From a virus (lineage: Duplodnaviria; Caudoviricetes), in IMG/VR virus record IMGVR_UViG_3300025018_000091: a stretch of 64,000 nt of DNA; one strand, written 5' to 3'. Position 1 is the first letter of the stretch. The number at the start of each line of letters is the position of its first letter. A program made the position numbers and the translations under genes. The notes below the pieces were generated by a model, which worked only from the letters and a program-made list of their open reading frames with translations, did no database searches and was not told where the DNA came from. Below, one piece after another: positions 932 through 60,668 of this stretch.

Positions 932-1591
932 TTAAGTGGTTGTATTATTAATTTTTTTCCAATAACCACGACCTGGTTTTATAATACCATATGTTTTACA
1001 CCATTTACTAATGGCAACATCAGAAACCCCAAATTTTTTACTTAAATGTGTTAAAGGAAATTCCCACACTAATTTTTCTAATTCTTCTCTAGATGGTCTT
1101 TTTACCTTTCTAGATTTTAGATGCGGAACTCCTTTTTTACAAAATGAACTAATAACATCTTTAGATGATAAACCAAAATCTTTATAATTTTTTTTATTAG
1201 CAATATCTGTAAAATCCAAGAAATCTTCAAACCAATATATGGGTGTTGGCGATTTTGGAATATTAAAAGAAATGGTATGTCCAGCAAATTTAATTGAAGG
1301 AAATACTACAACATTTTTATCTGGTAAATACGCGCCATAATAATCAAAATCAAATTCTTTATACTCTTTTTTATTAACTGTATTTCTTGAATACCAATAT
1401 GTATTTTTATCTAAAAATCCATCACTTGCATATTTGCTTTGTATTCGATATAATTTATTATCTTTGTAAGCAATAAGATCGAAGGGCAAATGATCTCCTA
1501 TTGGCAAAAAGATATCAAAATCTTTTTCTATTAATGTTGAAATTACTTTTGATTGAGCAATAGTTGCTTTTCTATGTGAACTAAATACCAT
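932..1591 (-). CDS. PD-(D/E)XK homing-type endonuclease with C-terminal HTH
   Basis: PFDLIA...RIQSKY and DFDYY core; C-terminal PSREELEKLVWE...SKKFGVSDVAISKWCK HTH. Confidence 0.75.
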   Translation of the reverse strand: MVFSSHRKATIAQSKVISTLIEKDFDIFLPIGDHLPFDLIAYKDNKLYRIQSKYASDGFLDKNTYWYSRNTVNKKEYKEFDFDYYGAYLPDKNVVVFPSIKFAGHTISFNIPKSPTPIYWFEDFLDFTDIANKKNYKDFGLSSKDVISSFCKKGVPHLKSRKVKRPSREELEKLVWEFPLTHLSKKFGVSDVAISKWCKTYGIIKPGRGYWKKINNTTT

Positions 1592-1648
1592 TAAATTACT
1601 ACCATTGGTTCGAGTTAAATATATTCGAACTTATTGATAGGTTTGATT

Positions 1649-1724
1649 TGGTATCCCTAACAAGATTTGCACTTGTGACATCAAACTTAGGAGGTTTGCG
1701 TTCTATCTACTGAACTATAGGGAT
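1649..1724 (-). tRNA. tRNA-Arg(CCT)
   Basis: Acceptor ATCCCTA/TAGGGAT, anticodon arm CAAAC-CT CCT AA-GTTTG, T-loop TGCAAAT, encoded CCA. Confidence 0.9.
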
Positions 1725-2162
1725 ATTTTTTGTATCTATTCCATAATCTTCTAAAATAGATATATCAAGCTTCCATTTCTTTCCACTTCTTTTTGCCCAA
1801 GTCATAAACTCTTTAGCAATATATTCTTCAGCTACCTTTTTAGTAACCTTATTAACCTTCATGAAATGTTTTAAGGCAATTTCTTTTTTATTATTCAGCT
1901 GAGCTAAGCCAAAATGTTTTACCATATGACAATTAGGACACAACGCAATCAAACCAGTAAGTTTTTGGACACCAGCTCTATATTTCCATATTTCATGGCA
2001 TTCAACTGGATGTTTGGGTCCAATACCACCACATATCTCACAAGTATCCCACGCACGAGAATAAACTTGTTTTTTTAAGGAATCCCACCGTTGTTTTGTT
2101 AAAATCGCTCTAACATTAGAATACCAGCAGGAAGACGGAACCAAGTCCAATGTTAGCTTCAT
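1707..2162 (-). CDS. HNH endonuclease
   Basis: CEICG...ECHE...ALCPNCH...H pattern; stop codon lies inside the tRNA-Arg gene. Confidence 0.85.
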   Translation of the reverse strand: MKLTLDLVPSSCWYSNVRAILTKQRWDSLKKQVYSRAWDTCEICGGIGPKHPVECHEIWKYRAGVQKLTGLIALCPNCHMVKHFGLAQLNNKKEIALKHFMKVNKVTKKVAEEYIAKEFMTWAKRSGKKWKLDISILEDYGIDTKNIPIVQ

Positions 2163-2440
2163 TTAAGATCTCTAAATAAATTTCTGTATGCATGAACTAA
2201 CTTGACTACTTGAACCATTAACTCCTGTTGTTCATCGGTTAAAGATTCTTCACCATAGAACATCATAGATCTAGCAGCGTCATTCAATTCAGTCATTGAC
2301 ATATTCATTGAATATAATGATGACTTAATTTTATTCATTATATCGGTATTAAAAACTGGGTCTGTGTTCCGGACCTCTTGATCACCAATTTTTTCTTCTA
2401 TTTCATTAGCTAATGAAAATAATTTATCAAGATTGTTCAT
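2159..2440 (-). CDS. Hypothetical protein
   Basis: 93-aa ORF in co-oriented gene run with ATGA overlap. Confidence 0.6.
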   Translation of the reverse strand: MNNLDKLFSLANEIEEKIGDQEVRNTDPVFNTDIMNKIKSSLYSMNMSMTELNDAARSMMFYGEESLTDEQQELMVQVVKLVHAYRNLFRDLK

Positions 2441-2463
2441 ATTAAAGTGCTAGATTATTAGTA

Positions 2464-2868
2464 TTACCCAGAAAATTCTACTAGATAATCCATCTTTTGT
2501 TGTTTGGTATCATAAATCACATATTCATCATCAGAAAATTGTGAACCTCTAACCCCATGACAACTATCAAATCCTTTTGGAGGTCCAGCTAAACCATATG
2601 TAATTTTACGATACTCTTTTTCTTTTCCTAAAGCAACACTTGCTATAGTCATTAATTTTGTACCACGACTACCTGGATGGGCGTAATAAGAAGCAGTATT
2701 AACTGCATCTACAAAATAAATACCGTTTCCCAACCAACCTGCGTCAGTTCTTTTAACACCTAAGCTTACAACTACTTTAGGGAGTAATAACCCCCTAGAT
2801 AAGATACCAACCCAATTTTTGGTTGAAGTACCATGAAATAGCTGTCTTATATTACCAATGATAACCAA
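2464..2868 (-). CDS. PARP-type ADP-ribosyltransferase, catalytic domain only
   Basis: LFHGT, LGNGIYF, SYY and DDEYVIYD give the H-Y-E triad; no WGR or regulatory domain. Confidence 0.8.
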   Translation of the reverse strand: MVIIGNIRQLFHGTSTKNWVGILSRGLLLPKVVVSLGVKRTDAGWLGNGIYFVDAVNTASYYAHPGSRGTKLMTIASVALGKEKEYRKITYGLAGPPKGFDSCHGVRGSQFSDDEYVIYDTKQQKMDYLVEFSG

Positions 2869-2884
2869 TTTACCACTTTATATT

Positions 2885-3199
2885 TCATCCTACCCACCAA
2901 CAAAAAGTATTTTCAAGAGGTTTTGGTACATCAACTTTTGAAATAATTAAATCTCCAGAACTATAATCAGCATAATACCACCATTGTTTTGGAAACTCAA
3001 ATTTTCCTCTTGAAGGAATAACAGAGACCTCTTCAATCAATGCATAGTTATAATAAAATTCAAATATATCACCACTATTTGTTAATATTGTTTTCTCGGC
3101 ATCATTAAATCTTTTGTATAGCGCCCACAATCGAGTTGATCTAACTACATTCCGTAATTCGAAATCCAATAGCATGACACCCATAGCATATATTTTCAT
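2885..3199 (-). CDS. Hypothetical protein
   Basis: 104-aa ORF in co-oriented run. Confidence 0.55.
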   Translation of the reverse strand: MKIYAMGVMLLDFELRNVVRSTRLWALYKRFNDAEKTILTNSGDIFEFYYNYALIEEVSVIPSRGKFEFPKQWWYYADYSSGDLIISKVDVPKPLENTFCWWVG

Positions 3200-3501
3200 T
3201 ATTCAAAACATTTCTTTTTATCTTGACGATGAATTCCTAATATAATCATTTCATCAATCATCATATTAATTGCTTGTAGGTTTCTTGCTGCCTGTAAAGA
3301 TACGTCTTCATCATCAGAATTTAAATAAAAAATCATTTCGTGCCTATATCTAATCATAGCATAATATTTGCCACGCTGACAAGCATTTAATGGTTCTGCA
3401 ATTCTTTGTTCAATGGCGGTTGGTTCGGTCTCAGGCGGAACCTGAAGTTGAGTAGCGCCGCACCCAAATATAAATAGAATGAGTATGAGAAGATATCTCA
3501 T
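3199..3501 (-). CDS. Putative lipoprotein
   Basis: Start at MRYLLILILFIFGC (signal plus lipobox-like Cys); the longer track start overlaps the tmRNA. Confidence 0.6.
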   Translation of the reverse strand: MRYLLILILFIFGCGATQLQVPPETEPTAIEQRIAEPLNACQRGKYYAMIRYRHEMIFYLNSDDEDVSLQAARNLQAINMMIDEMIILGIHRQDKKKCFE

Positions 3502-3523
3502 ATCTAAATGTGAAATTATTGAT

Positions 3524-3881
3524 TGGTGGAGATGCGGGGCTCCGACTCCCCGGTCCAAAGCATTCATCATCAAATATCGTTCACAGACTTAGCCAACATT
3601 AACGTTGATTGGCGACGTTGGTAAATACTCGCTTCACCAAACCAGTTACTGTTTATTTCGCTTGCAATTCCGTAACCAAATTGTTTGCTATTCTTCGTGG
3701 GTTAAATGTCTTTTGAGTACCAAGAATATCTCTTCTCAGACATTCCAATTAAGCAGCTTGTGCAACTGGAGCAAATGCGTTATCGTTTGCATTTATACGT
3801 TGGTTGCTTTTTAACGAGATTGCAATCATTCCCGGTCTGCATTTTGATTAAATCCTACCCTGTCGAATCCAATTCATCCCC
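3524..3881 (-). ncRNA. ssrA: tmRNA; tag reading frame 3790..3749 encodes ANDNAFAPVAQAA
   Basis: 5' GGGGATGAATTGGATTCGAC, 3' CATCTCCACCA, G3:U70 pair, resume codon GCA after ATAAAT, tag ending in AA-stop. Confidence 0.97.
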
Positions 3882-3893
3882 ATGTTTAAGTAA

Positions 3894-4247
3894 CTACTTC
3901 CCAATAAATAAAACCAATGGAGGCATATAGTATATTTGTTCTTTAGAATAATCACACCATTTAGTTTCAAATGTTATTCCAATATCTCCATTAGCGTGCT
4001 GAGAGACGCATAATGTTCCATTTATATATTTTTTATTAGACAATACCTCTTTATCAAAATTTTTATCTATATCTAATATATGAACAACATTATCTTTATC
4101 TATTGATTTTTTATCATAAAGATTTTTTAAATAAATATATATATCATTAATACTATTAAACTGTTTATCAAAATTTATTGAATTAATAGAAAAAAGATAT
4201 CTATCATACATAGAACGGTAACTATCATTTTTACAAAAAATTTTCAT
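3894..4247 (-). CDS. Hypothetical protein
   Basis: 117-aa ORF between tRNA-Thr and tmRNA. Confidence 0.55.
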   Translation of the reverse strand: MKIFCKNDSYRSMYDRYLFSINSINFDKQFNSINDIYIYLKNLYDKKSIDKDNVVHILDIDKNFDKEVLSNKKYINGTLCVSQHANGDIGITFETKWCDYSKEQIYYMPPLVLFIGK

Positions 4248-4249
4248 AT

Positions 4250-4323
4250 TGGAGCCGAAAACCAGTATCGCACGGGTGTCTATTCTTTACGAGAGAATTA
4301 TTCTACTTTTGAACTATATCGGC
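4250..4323 (-). tRNA. tRNA-Thr(CGT), atypical D/T loops
   Basis: Acceptor GCCGATA/TTTCGGC (one mismatch), anticodon arm ATTCT-CT CGT AA-AGAAT, T-loop TGCGATA, CCA. Confidence 0.8.
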
Positions 4324-4798
4324 TTATTTTTATATTATCAGCGATATGATTAAAATATCTGTAAGAACTTTGTTCTGTGAATTTTATCTGTTCAGAAATA
4401 TCTATAACTATTAGTTTAATTCCTTTATCTATACATCTCTGTATTTTCTTTTGATCATTATCTATTGTTTTTAGATAATTTTTATAAATTGGTTTATAAT
4501 GAAAAATTCCATTTAACTCAAATGCCAATTTAAGATCTGGTATATAGATATCTAACTCTAAATCAATTGTTTTAATATCATTGAATTTAACTGTTAAAAT
4601 TGGAAATGTTGTTTTTATTTGACCTTCAACCCACTTTTCCAATTTTGATCTTCTTATGCCATTAGTTTTATGTGTATTATTATATGTTGCTGCGCAACTA
4701 GAAGAACAGAAACTATTAATTGTCTTTTTTATTTGATTTGGATATTTGTCAAATTTAATTCCACATTGCGCACATTGAACAGACTCTATAGTTTTCAT
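4298..4798 (-). CDS. Zn-finger plus Vsr/PD-(D/E)XK-type endonuclease
   Basis: CAQCG and FCSSSC; ELDIYIPDLKLAFELNGIFHY; stop codon inside tRNA-Thr(CGT). Confidence 0.8.
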   Translation of the reverse strand: MKTIESVQCAQCGIKFDKYPNQIKKTINSFCSSSCAATYNNTHKTNGIRRSKLEKWVEGQIKTTFPILTVKFNDIKTIDLELDIYIPDLKLAFELNGIFHYKPIYKNYLKTIDNDQKKIQRCIDKGIKLIVIDISEQIKFTEQSSYRYFNHIADNIKISRYSSKVE

Positions 4799-4991
4799 AG
4801 AAAGAAAAAGACATTTTCTAGAACAATATATAGATTGCCTATTATTTGCTTTACCAAATTTACTTTGAATATCATGTTTAGTTCTACGAAAAAAAATTAT
4901 TACAATTAGGACATTGCAATTCTACTAAATCCCTAGATTGAAATGCATTTAAATAATCAATAAATTCTATTGTGTTTTTAGCTAGCATACT

Positions 4992-5065
4992 TGGAGCTGA
5001 CACCGAGTAATGCTCTCGGTTCCCAACATTACCACTGTTGAATAATACTTTTATACTATGTCAGC
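4992..5065 (-). tRNA. tRNA-Thr(GGT), atypical D/T loops
   Basis: Acceptor GCTGACA/TGTCAGC, anticodon arm CAACA-GT GGT AA-TGTTG, T arm CCGAG-AGCATTA-CTCGG, CCA. Confidence 0.8.
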
Positions 5066-5068
5066 ATT

Positions 5069-5144
5069 TGGAGCCCGCAATCGGATTTGAACCGACAATC
5101 TTTCGCTTACAGGGCGATTGCATAGCCAATCATGCTCTACGGGC
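5069..5144 (-). tRNA. tRNA-Thr(TGT)
   Basis: Canonical cloverleaf, GG in D loop, TTCAAAT T-loop, CCA. Confidence 0.95.
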
Positions 5145-5148
5145 TTAG

Positions 5149-5244
5149 TGAAGGTTTTCGCCGATATTAAGTTCCTCTACCGGAAACACGGTCTGGAATA
5201 TCAGGGTTACTTCACGAACTACCTTCAACACCTCGTGACCCTTC
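5149..5244 (-). ncRNA. Structured leader RNA with pseudoknot (HDV-like ribozyme topology candidate)
   Basis: GGGTCAC/GTAACCC, TGAAGGT/ACCTTCA and a long GATATT..AATATC hairpin, followed by GGCGAAA. Confidence 0.45.
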
Positions 5245-5250
5245 ATACAC

Positions 5251-5278
5251 AATATAACTCAATATTAGCAGATGTCAA
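5251..5278 (-). promoter_or_regulatory. Sigma70-like promoter TTGACA-N16-TATATT upstream of the Thr tRNAs
   Basis: Intergenic; one of 8 copies with the same spacing. Confidence 0.75.
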
Positions 5279-5284
5279 GGGGGA

Positions 5285-5671
5285 TTATTTTTTAAAATTA
5301 CCGATGGTCGTATGAAATTTGTGGCGACCATCGGGCGACCTTGTTATCTCGCTTGTCTTTGTTAATTCTAATTCTAACCTAATTGCTTCTAATTTTTCTG
5401 AATATATATTTAGCCACATATAATTAGGACTTATATAAATATGATTTTCATATTCAAATTCAACTTCTTGTCCTTCATATTTTCTCCACAGATATAAATT
5501 TGGTACAACTTCTTTACGAATAACAGAAATATGTGGAGCATATCTTTGCTTATTGTAATCAACATATTTTGGTATTAGAGCCTGATAATAATTTGAAATT
5601 TCAGGATCTATCTCAATGATTAATTTAAATGGATCGTTAAAATACCTTAATGTTCCAATTGATTTGAACAT
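5285..5671 (-). CDS. 2H phosphoesterase (T4 57B/Acb1-like or cyclic phosphodiesterase)
   Basis: Two HxS/T motifs: PHISV and FHTTIG. Confidence 0.7.
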   Translation of the reverse strand: MFKSIGTLRYFNDPFKLIIEIDPEISNYYQALIPKYVDYNKQRYAPHISVIRKEVVPNLYLWRKYEGQEVEFEYENHIYISPNYMWLNIYSEKLEAIRLELELTKTSEITRSPDGRHKFHTTIGNFKK

Positions 5672-41459: not shown

Positions 41460-42184
41460 TTTATTTCTATCGTATGATACGTCGTTGCAGCATTAGAAAC
41501 CAACATATTTCCTCTAATGGCAAGTCCATTAGCTTCATGACAATGCCCATGCAATAAATATGTTGGCAATCTTTTATCATTCACTTTATAGTCTAAAGCG
41601 TTAGTTATAACAGAACTGCCTATAGTATCATTGCCGTGAGTTAAATCAAGCATTTGATACAATGGGGCATGTGTCACCAACACATCTACAAAAGATTCAT
41701 TTAAAGCCTTGACCATTTTCTCGACTTCTAATTCCATTTCTGGAACTTCTCTTTCATAATTAAACATTCCATTTATCGCTGGAACATACGGAAATCCATA
41801 AAAAGTAACGTCTTTATGCAACACAACCTGTTCTGTAAGATTAATGGCTTTTATACCTTCAGATGCAAGAGTTTGAGCCATTAGTTGTGGATGTAAGAAA
41901 TCATGATTGCCAAGAATAAAAAGAAGCGGTCTTCCTTGAAGCCATACCTTAATATTTCTTATATTCTGACTTAACCAATCCAGCTGAAAAGCCATCTCTT
42001 GTGTTAGGTTTTTATTCATAAATGCAGTAGAATTAGGAAAAAAATCACCAGAATGAACTACTGCGTCAAATTTACCACGTAATGTAGGAAATCCACCATG
42101 TGTATCAGAAATATGACAAACTCTCATTTTATATTTCCTTGCAACAACATCAGATACTCTTTTTATTCTAGATACATTAACCAT
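41456..42184 (-). CDS. Calcineurin-like metallophosphoesterase
   Basis: SDTHG, HSGD, GNHD, THAP, HGHCHE. Confidence 0.92.
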   Translation of the reverse strand: MVNVSRIKRVSDVVARKYKMRVCHISDTHGGFPTLRGKFDAVVHSGDFFPNSTAFMNKNLTQEMAFQLDWLSQNIRNIKVWLQGRPLLFILGNHDFLHPQLMAQTLASEGIKAINLTEQVVLHKDVTFYGFPYVPAINGMFNYEREVPEMELEVEKMVKALNESFVDVLVTHAPLYQMLDLTHGNDTIGSSVITNALDYKVNDKRLPTYLLHGHCHEANGLAIRGNMLVSNAATTYHTIEIK

Positions 42185-42446: not shown

Positions 42447-43115
42447 ATGTCTCACAAAAAAATAATATCATTAGCAAATAGGTTTTTTATTAAATTAGCA
42501 TACGAAGATGTTGCCACTAATCCTGGCGATATGCCTAATAAAGAAAAAAAGACAGTAGATACTGGTATTAATGAGCCCATAAATGATTTACTAGAACCTC
42601 CTTCAGCTTTAATAGAAATGGTTCACAATAACCCATATCAAGATGAAAGAATGTCATCACCAGGTGAAGGAGCAATTGCAGAGAGAAGAGAAATAGTAGA
42701 GAAATTATATGGTTATGCAAAAACTATTTCTAATGAAATTAACTCTGACTTTGGAGTTTTAAAAGATTATTGGTTAACTCATCAAAAAGAATATAAAGCA
42801 TTAGATAATATTAAAAAAGTATTTGATGAATTATTACCAATTATAATATATACTCCGTACGAATTTAAAACCAAATTAACTGATTTCTTAAATTCTAAAC
42901 CAGAACTAAAACTTTATAATCCAGCTAATTCAGTACAACCAATATCAGAAACACAAATGGATAATTTAAAAACTATTTATTATGATTCATATTCTGATAT
43001 GATATTCAGACATACCAATAGAGGTTTGTCAGGTGGTCAGGTGCTAAAACCAGCACATCCTAAAGGAATTAGGATGTTAATGATGTTGCCTTTCTGGATG
43101 GAAGAAAACATGTAA
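42447..43115 (+). CDS. Hypothetical protein (opposite strand)
   Basis: 222-aa ORF with no competing minus-strand gene. Confidence 0.7.
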   Translation: MSHKKIISLANRFFIKLAYEDVATNPGDMPNKEKKTVDTGINEPINDLLEPPSALIEMVHNNPYQDERMSSPGEGAIAERREIVEKLYGYAKTISNEINSDFGVLKDYWLTHQKEYKALDNIKKVFDELLPIIIYTPYEFKTKLTDFLNSKPELKLYNPANSVQPISETQMDNLKTIYYDSYSDMIFRHTNRGLSGGQVLKPAHPKGIRMLMMLPFWMEENM

Positions 43116-59397: not shown

Positions 59398-59916
59398 TTA
59401 TCTTTTCTTAGGAACATATAGTCCTGATGAAATTTCCTTTAATACTTTATTCGGCGCATTAAAGTAAATTAATATCTCTTTAATGAAATCATAAAATGGA
59501 TATACTTGTCCGCGCCTAATAGTTAGTATTGAAAATGCATTAATTGGATCATACCCTTTAGATAACATATATGCATATACAATACTTGGAGACCTACTTA
59601 CCCCAGCAAAACAATGAACATACACTTTTCCTTTAGAAATATTGCTATCAATAAATGACAAAACTTCTGGAAGGATATTACAAATACAATTACTTGAACC
59701 ATCATCAATTGATATTGTTTTATGATTAATACCAATTAAATTAAGATTCGGCAATTCTATATCAGTAACATCATTAAATTCAGTCTTATCATTATCACTT
59801 AGAAAGAACTCAGAACCAACTGATAGACATGCGGAAAATCCAGAATTAACTCCATCTTTTATATCCTGGACTTCCGTAAAACTGCCTAAATATAAGTTAT
59901 CGATAATCTCTTGCAT
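59398..59916 (-). CDS. Dual-specificity protein phosphatase
   Basis: NLYLG, IDD, VHCFAGVSRS. Confidence 0.93.
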   Translation of the reverse strand: MQEIIDNLYLGSFTEVQDIKDGVNSGFSACLSVGSEFFLSDNDKTEFNDVTDIELPNLNLIGINHKTISIDDGSSNCICNILPEVLSFIDSNISKGKVYVHCFAGVSRSPSIVYAYMLSKGYDPINAFSILTIRRGQVYPFYDFIKEILIYFNAPNKVLKEISSGLYVPKKR

Positions 59917-60668
59917 TAAAAGACCAACTTTTCAATATAATTTCTATCTGAAGAGAATACTGGTATTTCATTATCAACAACCCATTCAGATCGTTCTACA
60001 ACTTCTTTTTCTCCAGTAAAATGATTAGTTGAATCTTTCATGGTCTTAGTTTTTACAATACAACGACCTCTCTTTTGAGTAGTCGGGCAATTGTTCCAGT
60101 TAAATCCCTTTTGAAAGCACATTTCTTGCAAGGCTGAATTATTTTTATTATTGCATTCCTTGTGAGAATATAGGGAACGAGCCAGCATCTGAACTGAATT
60201 TCTAGTTGCATCCTGTTGTCTCCAGATAAAGTAATTGCACACCTCTTCCTTTGGCAAAACAAATGCTCGGCTATCAAATACTGCTAGCTTATAAACTCCA
60301 AAGAGTTTATGAGACACACCAGTCATCACAGCAGATGCCATTCCAGCCGAAACACTAACCATTTTTTGAAGATTATTATCAAACCACGATTGTGTTTCAA
60401 GTGTAGTGTAATTATTCAGAAGCAATGAAATCTCATCAGATTGAACATATGCTAACTGACATCCCTGAACATTGCTACACAAATAGGTAGCTACATCATT
60501 AATACAATCAATTAGATCTTGATCGAAAGGTTTTTCACAACCTTTAGTGTAGGAATGAAATGCTTTGCCGTCAACCCTAATTATGACAGGCATTCTAATC
60601 GGCAATTTAAGACGATATGCGTCCTCATAAATCTTCATTCGGTCGCCAAGAGAATCTTTAGTGCTCAT
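59916..60668 (-). CDS. thg1: tRNA-His guanylyltransferase (Thg1-like)
   Basis: IIRVDGKAFH, QSDEIS, FDSR, WRQQDATRNS, KRG. Confidence 0.95.
   Translation of the reverse strand: MSTKDSLGDRMKIYEDAYRLKLPIRMPVIIRVDGKAFHSYTKGCEKPFDQDLIDCINDVATYLCSNVQGCQLAYVQSDEISLLLNNYTTLETQSWFDNNLQKMVSVSAGMASAVMTGVSHKLFGVYKLAVFDSRAFVLPKEEVCNYFIWRQQDATRNSVQMLARSLYSHKECNNKNNSALQEMCFQKGFNWNNCPTTQKRGRCIVKTKTMKDSTNHFTGEKEVVERSEWVVDNEIPVFSSDRNYIEKLVF

Follow-up and report, generated by a model that had tools for sequence, protein, structure and literature searches.

Three tRNA genes of a very large groundwater phage with a matched A18/G55 change in the elbow

G18 and U55 (pseudouridine 55) are taught as invariant parts of transfer RNA (tRNA). 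In the canonical elbow, base 18 is inserted between bases 57 and 58 of the T-loop and forms a bond with base 55, while the G19-C56 pair presents an exposed flat face to the ribosome, RNase P, T-boxes and numerous enzymes; pseudouridine 55 is called universally conserved in a review of the elbow (PMC4810234). Here we describe three tRNA genes, Arg(CCT), Thr(CGT) and Thr(GGT), that carry A18 and G55 instead. They lie between positions 1,649 and 5,065 of a 64,000-nucleotide (nt) stretch of viral DNA (IMG/VR record IMGVR_UViG_3300025018_000091), hereafter termed the window. The window is AT-rich (~33% G+C), comes from a very large uncultured groundwater phage and has nearly all of its genes on the minus strand.

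The closest described structures are the T-loops of riboswitches, ribosomal RNA (rRNA), RNase P and T-boxes. In RNAs other than tRNA, this five-base motif most often has the sequence UGNRA. In the flavin mononucleotide (FMN) and cobalamin riboswitches, T-loops are of the form UGNRA (89%) or CGNRA (11%). The intercalating base is almost always an adenosine (99.96% of sequences), and the crystal structure shows it joined by two hydrogen bonds to the sugar edge of the G in loop position 2 (10.1101/2022.12.26.521914). The tRNA-like UUCRA loops form a separate, weaker-performing group in the riboswitch context, and GGAAG is an rRNA T-loop (10.1101/2022.12.26.521914). Among atypical tRNAs, the tRNAPyl of D. 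hafniense is a natural active tRNA with U54 G55, A57 and A58 and without G18G19 (PMC1851642). Since this tRNA is active, G55 as such is compatible with translation, although tRNAPyl is built very differently.

Already known are the T-loop motif, including its UGNRA form, the function of the 18-55 contact and atypical tRNAs such as tRNAPyl and mitochondrial tRNAs. In the tRNA literature searched, no account was found of tRNAs that are otherwise standard but have a covarying A18-G55 elbow, and such an elbow is absent from a review of non-canonical tRNAs (PMC7609411). The locus described here adds a series of orthologs, the replacement of tRNA cassettes beside homing endonucleases, an argument on D-loop register that uses A20, and a match to the module made of UGNRA plus an adenosine.

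Anatomy and D-loop register of the variant tRNAs

All tRNA counts for this phage cover the window, which has ten tRNAs. The three variant genes and the seven canonical ones are as follows.

1649..1724, minus strand: tRNA-Arg(CCT), variant; D-loop AGUAGAUA, T-loop UGCAAAU; A18 at 1708, G19 at 1707, A20 at 1706, G55 at 1670, C56 at 1669; encoded CCA.
4250..4323, minus strand: tRNA-Thr(CGT), variant; D-loop AAAAGUA, T-loop UGCGAUA; A18 at 4307, G19 at 4306, G55 at 4271; encoded CCA.
4992..5065, minus strand: tRNA-Thr(GGT), variant; D-loop AAAAGUA, T-loop AGCAUUA; A18 at 5049, G19 at 5048, G55 at 5013; A54, C56, U58; encoded CCA.
5069..5144, minus strand: tRNA-Thr(TGT), canonical and used for comparison, from the same operon, three bases upstream of Thr(GGT); D-loop GAUUGGCUA, T-loop UUCAAAU; 47.8 bits with Rfam, also called by relaxed ARAGORN.
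38.8-40.2 kb: the six other canonical tRNAs, namely Arg(ACG) in two copies, Arg(TCT), Glu, His and Leu.

The sequence-only reading had proposed that Arg(CCT), Thr(CGT) and Thr(GGT) combine G55 with an A-G D-loop, and that the tRNAs of the window with a normal TTC loop keep GG. Checking of coordinates and bases confirmed the former, and the latter was seen in 7/7, all remaining tRNAs having a GG D-loop together with a TTC T-loop. For the window alone, the chance of such an exception-free split of three versus seven is 1/120. The three variant genes are dispersed among protein genes beside homing endonucleases and share G55, C56, a purine at position 57 and A18-G19 in place of GG. Thr(GGT) recurs in a contig of aquifer run X2 and Arg(CCT) in a contig of aquifer run X4, both with zero differences, so the variant sequences are not assembly errors.

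In each variant tRNA the acceptor stem measures 7 base pairs (bp), the anticodon loop is 7 nt long and contains U33 and A37, and there is a discriminator base as well as an encoded CCA. All three make a complete cloverleaf, including a 5-bp anticodon stem, a 5-bp T-stem and a 7-nt T-loop, and the minimum free energy fold is cloverleaf-like in 3/3; the conserved combination of G18-G19 with U54-U55-C56 that marks elongator tRNAs is lacking in all three. Both Thr variants have the Thr identity bases G1-C72, C2-G71, G35 and U36, and the Arg identity bases A20, C35 and A73 are present in Arg(CCT). Thr(GGT) is the sole tRNA seen in the window that is able to read ACU and ACC, which together make up 53% of the Thr codons in the long open reading frames (ORFs) of the window. 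If functional, it would serve the commonest Thr codon; a role as a mere spare is improbable.

Standard gene finders treat the three genes unevenly. Default ARAGORN reports seven tRNAs in the window and calls only Arg(CCT) (1649-1724) of the three variants; with a relaxed threshold it adds Thr(GGT) at 4992-5065 and also calls Thr(CGT) and Thr(TGT). Rfam gives extra tRNAs at 4253-4323 and 5072-5144, plus a transfer-messenger RNA (tmRNA) at 3524-3881. Against the RF00005 model, whose gathering threshold is 29 bits, the scores are 64.7 bits for Arg(CCT) and 49.0 bits for Thr(CGT), so that these two pass; Thr(GGT) has no match even at E<=1. Phage tRNA repertoires are therefore undercounted, since such genes are missed by the finders (two of the three by default ARAGORN, one of the three by Rfam).

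A peculiarity of the canonical comparator lies outside the elbow. Thr(TGT) (5069-5144, minus strand) has C33 in place of the near-universal U33, within the anticodon loop CCUGUAA. The same C33 is found in Thr(TGT) of a related phage contig, L019 (L019:1338-1412), in an otherwise different tRNA, and U33 is found in the relatives L021 and L037.

The D-loop base that changed can be placed by comparison with relatives. The 7-nt D-loops of the Thr genes, AAAAGTA and AGAAGTA, align without gaps to the canonical AACGGCA (L021 Thr(TGT)), AGAGGTA (L019 Thr(TGT)) and AGTGGTA (L020), so the change in the Thr genes is G18 to A with G19 retained. The D-loop of Arg(CCT) has eight bases, and its register is ambiguous from the alignment alone. 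Nearly all canonical Arg tRNAs sampled have G18-G19-A20, and the G55 Arg tRNAs have A-G-A in 4/4. A20 is an identity base for arginyl-tRNA synthetase and directly follows G19 in Arg(CCT). Because of this A20 pattern, the register is read as A18-G19-A20, with the G19-C56 pair preserved. The other register, G18-A19, was ruled out by the A20 rule and by the retained C56.

Covariation of positions 18 and 55 in relatives and beyond

Relatives of the phage were reached through proteins encoded near the tRNA genes and are related huge-phage contigs from IMG/VR and Joint Genome Institute (JGI) metagenomes; INPHARED phages gave no DNA match to positions 1500-5300 of the window. The closest relative is L019, which has the same operon and a neighbouring HNH protein that is 85% identical. 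Both of its Thr orthologs are variant, with D-loop/T-loop pairs AGAAGTA/AGCATTA in Thr(GGT) and AAAAGTA/TGCGATA in Thr(CGT), whereas its Arg(CCT) at the same site is canonical (AAAGGAG/TTCGAGT). In L020 (71%), L021, L026 and L037 every Thr and Arg(CCT) gene is canonical. The window thus adds a shallow series, from canonical orthologs in sister phages through two of three genes switched in L019 to three of three in the window.

When the Thr(GGT) genes of the window and L019 are compared, both partners have changed in a compensatory way in two acceptor pairs (4-69 and 5-68) and in one pair of the anticodon stem (31-39), while the T-arm and A18-G19 are identical. Because the stems changed in a compensatory manner around an unchanged T-arm and A18-G19, Thr(GGT) appears to be a maintained RNA and not a decaying one. 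Thr(CGT) is 97% identical to its ortholog at L019:2156-2229. Identity to a canonical tRNA reaches 79% for Thr(CGT) (with L019 Thr(TGT)), 72% for Thr(GGT) (with L021 Thr(TGT)) and 71% for Arg(CCT) (with L026 Arg(CCT)). The three variants are at most 63% identical to each other, that is, each is nearer to a canonical tRNA than to another variant, which points to separate origins of the three genes.

These comparisons bear on the explanation by decay, in which the genes would be pseudo-tRNAs or processing handles freed from translational constraint. Two of the three genes are missed by standard finders, and G001, a related huge phage (IMGVR_UViG_3300028558_000791), has two tRNA-shaped RNAs in which a UGNRA T-loop goes with a lack of GG and a defective anticodon loop. 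The variant genes of the window, however, have intact anticodon loops, identity elements and CCA, Thr(GGT) alone among the tRNAs seen in the window can read ACU/ACC, and the stems of the acceptor and anticodon arms changed in a compensatory way relative to L019. A matched change of 18 and 55 is, moreover, the opposite of random decay. We consider decay to be highly improbable. The earlier suggestion that the paired swap reflects selection, not decay, is borne out by the compensatory changes in L019, the separate origins of the genes and the association of positions 18 and 55 among the 326 tRNAs described below.

The two G001 RNAs are located at 42086-42160 and 42729-42802 (L056:1086-1160 and 1729-1802). 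They have CCA ends, GG-less D-loops, T-loops UGUAA and UGCAA, and non-decoding anticodon loops, with G33 in one and six nucleotides in the other. One of the two has U56 and an all-A stretch that could provide A19. Among ~120 tRNAs of the related huge phages G001, G002 and G005, no ordinary tRNA has G55.

The sequence-only reading had called for a covariation analysis of 18 and 55 in a larger tRNA set. We searched IMG/VR and a species genome set with a pattern made of a Met-type anticodon arm followed at the correct distance by TGCRA, with the D-loop left unspecified. Most raw matches to this pattern are expected by chance, and a structural filter was applied to 80 viral loci among the matches listed; these yielded ~23 good Met tRNAs, with the D-loop AGYAGYA versus canonical AGYGGYA. 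The association was measured on 326 unique tRNAs that do not match the search pattern and come from the flanks of the fetched loci, so that their T-loops were unselected. The flanks include mixed arrays of a phage contig (L102), of Prosthecobacter (L226, L236, L278) and of Chloroflexales (L217, L286). Of the tRNAs with G55, 35/39 have an AG D-loop without GG, and of those with U55, 275/287 have GG, giving an odds ratio of 200 and a Fisher p = 2.7e-32, a value that overstates the number of independent events because many of the surveyed tRNAs are related. The four G55 exceptions mostly have A-G-G, or GG elsewhere in a long loop. A strong association was therefore found in the larger set.

The survey as a whole comprises 61 unique G55 tRNAs from 26 loci, which carry 18 different ARAGORN type labels; all 61 have a purine at position 57. 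A18/G55 with G19-C56 kept recurs in IMG/VR phage contigs and in the arrays of Prosthecobacter and Chloroflexales. In the mixed arrays the two types alternate gene by gene, each obeying the 18/55 rule. Because of this alternation within arrays and the many tRNA identities involved, chance or shared ancestry is an inadequate explanation of the association. Detection bias acts in the opposite direction, since ARAGORN scoring penalises the double variant most.

The outer pair of the elbow covaries too. A19-U56 is found in Thr(AGT) at L021:5696-5771 and L037:2284-2359, where G18-A19 occurs with U55-U56. In L286, a Chloroflexales array, two Arg tRNAs have C19-G56, with G-C-A in the D-loop and U-U-G in the T-loop. 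As 19-56 covaries in the same sets, the elbow pairs are evidently read by selection. At positions 54 and 58, phage and array tRNAs have A54/U58 (14), A54/A58 (9) and G54/G58 (7), with U55 and G55 alike. Further G55 tRNAs carry GGCRG loops, which resemble the rRNA T-loop GGAAG (10.1101/2022.12.26.521914).

Searches with patterns from the three genes themselves returned little. In IMG/VR, the anticodon-arm pattern of Arg(CCT) matched contig L002 and chance coding sequences and nothing else, and the exact T-arm pattern of Thr(GGT) gave chance matches only. The D-arm pattern of Thr(CGT) found two more tRNA sequences on three contigs, with an AAAAGUA D-loop and an AGCRUUA T-loop; its other matches were by chance. 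The two are a tRNA-Trp(CCA) and a tRNA-Thr(TGT), located on L350/L354 (a 242-kb contig labelled as a giant-virus metagenome-assembled genome and a 344-kb contig) and on L356 (a 140-kb contig). They have exactly the D-arm of Thr(CGT), GTTC AAAAGTA GAAT, and the T-loops AGCATTA or AGCGTTA. The sub-variant A54-G55-U58 thus occurs in unrelated large viral contigs.

In view of these data, the three genes are probably functional elongator tRNAs in which another inner tertiary contact locks the elbow; judging from sequence, all three are predicted to be charged and to decode. The T-loop would have been turned into the general UGNRA type, N-G55-C56-R57-N58, in which the intercalating base would now be A18, bonding the sugar edge of G55. 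The outer G19-C56 pair, the face recognised by elbow binders such as the ribosome and RNase P, is left intact. The inner lock would be switched in this way from the tRNA-specific G18-pseudouridine 55 contact to a general A-G contact.

The likeness to the T-loops of riboswitches, rRNA, RNase P and T-boxes lies in a five-base loop whose second position is G and whose fourth is a purine, and in an intercalating adenosine between positions 4 and 5, for which A18 is the candidate here. The loops of Arg(CCT) (UGCAA) and Thr(CGT) (UGCGA) conform exactly to UGNRA, and Thr(GGT) AGCAU matches at positions 2-4 with its 1-5 pair swapped to A-U. The partner-strand adenosine also covaries with the second-position G (35/39 and 275/287, with the change placed at 18 by the ungapped orthologs). 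In contrast to the riboswitch-type T-loops, the module is here part of a decoding tRNA and its position 3 is still Watson-Crick paired with G19; Thr(GGT) differs in addition by A and U at positions 1 and 5.

Several observations weigh against this reading. Thr(CGT) of the window has a C52-U62 mismatch in the T-stem, where L019 has an A-U pair, in addition to one U-U in the acceptor stem, and its T-arm has an alternative fold with a 7-bp stem and a triloop. In Thr(GGT), the replacement of U54/A58 by A54/U58 restricts the fit to UGNRA to positions 2 to 4. The 18/55 rule is strong and not absolute, since a few G55 tRNAs keep GG (e.g. Met of L229) and a few U55 tRNAs are without it, and the kinship among the surveyed tRNAs mentioned above belongs here too.

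Compared with canonical RF00005 tRNAs, including the Thr and Arg orthologs of L020, L021, L026 and L037, the variants have the same cloverleaf, stem lengths, U33, R37, G19-C56, R57, identity elements, encoded CCA and operon position. They differ by A18 for G18 and G55 for U55, which makes pseudouridine 55 and 2'-O-methylguanosine 18 (Gm18) impossible. Two classes of atypical tRNA were considered and rejected. In the tRNAPyl, the D-loop has 5 nt, the anticodon stem 6 bp and the variable loop 3 nt; a single base separates the acceptor stem from the D stem, and with A56 there is no G19-C56 pair. A compact tRNA of this kind does not agree with the D-loops of 7-8 nt, anticodon stems of 5 bp, variable loops of 4-5 nt and both bases 8-9 of the variants. 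The mitochondrial type II tRNA, which has no interaction between D- and T-loop, does not agree with G19 and C56 kept in 3/3 and with the change of 18 and 55 as a matched pair.

The inner elbow lock may be rebuildable with the general T-loop solution, which would link tRNA architecture to the T-loops of riboswitches and rRNA. The variants also offer a natural set for testing what folding, processing and translocation owe to the 18-55 contact, to pseudouridine 55 and to Gm18.

Homing endonucleases and a probable route of arrival

All three G55 genes touch an ORF of the homing-endonuclease type. The endonuclease ORFs near the variant genes are the following.

1707..2162, minus strand: HNH endonuclease ORF (phrog_5200, E = 4e-55); its 3' end (last codons) overlaps the 5' acceptor strand of Arg(CCT).
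4298..4990, minus strand: homing-endonuclease-like gene between Thr(GGT) and Thr(CGT), recognised from its translation and from the match of the L019 copy to PHROGs.
932-1591: PD-(D/E)XK endonuclease ORF, downstream of Arg(CCT).

The gene at 4298-4990 is frameshifted near its start, at a T-run at ~4885-4895, and its stop lies inside the D-arm of Thr(CGT), so that it overlaps the 5' end of the tRNA. The copy at L019:1494-2165 is intact, encodes 223 amino acids and matches PHROG 559, 3339 and 9084 (HNH/homing endonuclease). L020 is without an endonuclease between Thr(GGT) and Thr(CGT), and its two tRNAs are 3 nt apart.

The boundaries of similarity between the window and L019 fall within tRNA genes. 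When window 1649-2162 is compared with L019:7170-8000, most positions match through the HNH ORF, and the match collapses within the body of Arg(CCT) and downstream; the two Arg(CCT) genes have just the two acceptor strands in common. Identity in the Thr operon is 85-95% over the leader and the inserted ORF but drops to 57% in Thr(TGT). Because of these identity breaks at Arg(CCT) and Thr(TGT), the tRNA genes at this locus appear to behave as exchangeable cassettes. The matched A18/G55 alleles probably arrived at least two times, by recombination or co-conversion beside homing-endonuclease genes. We infer one event for the Thr pair, in an ancestor shared by L019 and the window phage, and a later one for Arg(CCT) in the window's own line. 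Alternatively, Thr(CGT) could have arisen by point mutation in place, as its acceptor and D stems are common with those of L019 Thr(TGT).

The same neighbourhood suggests an explanation at the DNA level, by which the loop changes confer target-site immunity to the adjacent homing endonucleases or are hitch-hikers in co-conversion tracts. It agrees with the position of all three G55 genes of the window next to such an ORF, with the occurrence of the endonuclease between the Thr genes only in the two variant-bearing phages, and with the break of L019 homology inside Arg(CCT) and the swap of Thr(TGT) between the window phage and L019. It leaves unexplained, however, the joint change of positions 18 and 55, ~37 nt apart, to A and G with G19, C56 and R57 constant, as well as the same rule in long tandem arrays, and the adjacency of the HNH gene to Arg(CCT) is also found in relatives with a canonical tRNA. 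We regard this explanation as very unlikely. The adjacency to endonucleases is best seen as the route of arrival of the variant and not as the reason for the pairing of 18 and 55.

Possible advantages of the variant and neighbouring RNA genes

By its chemistry, G55 cannot become pseudouridine and A18 cannot be Gm18. As these modifications cannot be received, the variant tRNAs would not depend on TruB or TrmH. An adaptive explanation, possible if somewhat doubtful, is that A18/G55 frees phage tRNAs from TruB, TrmH and perhaps TrmA, or hides them from a nuclease or defence system that reads or cuts the T-loop; a form of this explanation that we find just as doubtful is that the variant marks tRNAs for the phage's own RNA machinery. 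T-loop nucleases exist: the Burkholderia CdiA-CT E479 toxin cleaves between T54 and pseudouridine 55, which counts in favour of this explanation. It also agrees with the presence of the variant in phage contigs and in tRNA arrays within bacterial genomes, with its repeated origin or acquisition, and with the genes for RlaP, a 2H phosphoesterase-like protein, Thg1, PTH2 and RNA ligase in the window or just beyond it. The chemical barrier to pseudouridylation of G55 is a further point in its favour, though it does not show a selective cause.

Other observations do not fit an adaptive role. The elbow is canonical in 7/10 tRNAs of the window and in every ordinary tRNA found in G001 and G002, and both types of tRNA lie side by side in mixed arrays. 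Because most tRNAs of the window and all ordinary ones of the sister phages are canonical, there seems to be no general pressure on this clade. An advantage of a modification-independent, self-sufficient elbow and a state that is merely tolerated in accessory tRNAs are about equally likely. The occurrence in phage contigs and bacterial tRNA arrays would fit relaxed constraint combined with easy transfer, or an advantage such as modification-free fast folding or escape from T-loop readers.

In its broadest form, the A18-G55 pair would be a second, modification-independent class of elbow used on purpose by phages and mobile elements. Such an elbow would fold without TruB and TrmH and would escape from, or be distinguished by, readers and cutters of the T-pseudouridine-C loop, be they defence nucleases or the RNase P, Ro60 and RNA repair of the phage, and homing endonucleases would spread the allele cassettes. 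We consider this rather unlikely. The tRNA elbow may expose a layer of phage-host conflict, or independence from modification.

One further RNA of the same gene block has an altered T-loop.

3524..3881, minus strand: tmRNA (Rfam RF00023, 115 bits), with the 8-nt T-loop AGUCGGAG in place of UUCGAUU.

The 8-nt loop is also present in the tmRNA of L020 and, as AGUCGGUG, in that of L019, and the loop is canonical in L021 and L037. The L019 tmRNA has a compensatory change from G-C to A-U in the T-stem. The D-loop analogue of the tmRNA retains GG.

Elsewhere in the window, a Thg1-like gene is located at 59916-60668 on the minus strand. Beyond the end of the window (to ~22 kb; L083/L085/L087), genes are found for PTH2, an RNA-ligase-like protein, EF-Ts, Cpn10, NAMPT and an NMNAT-Nudix fusion.

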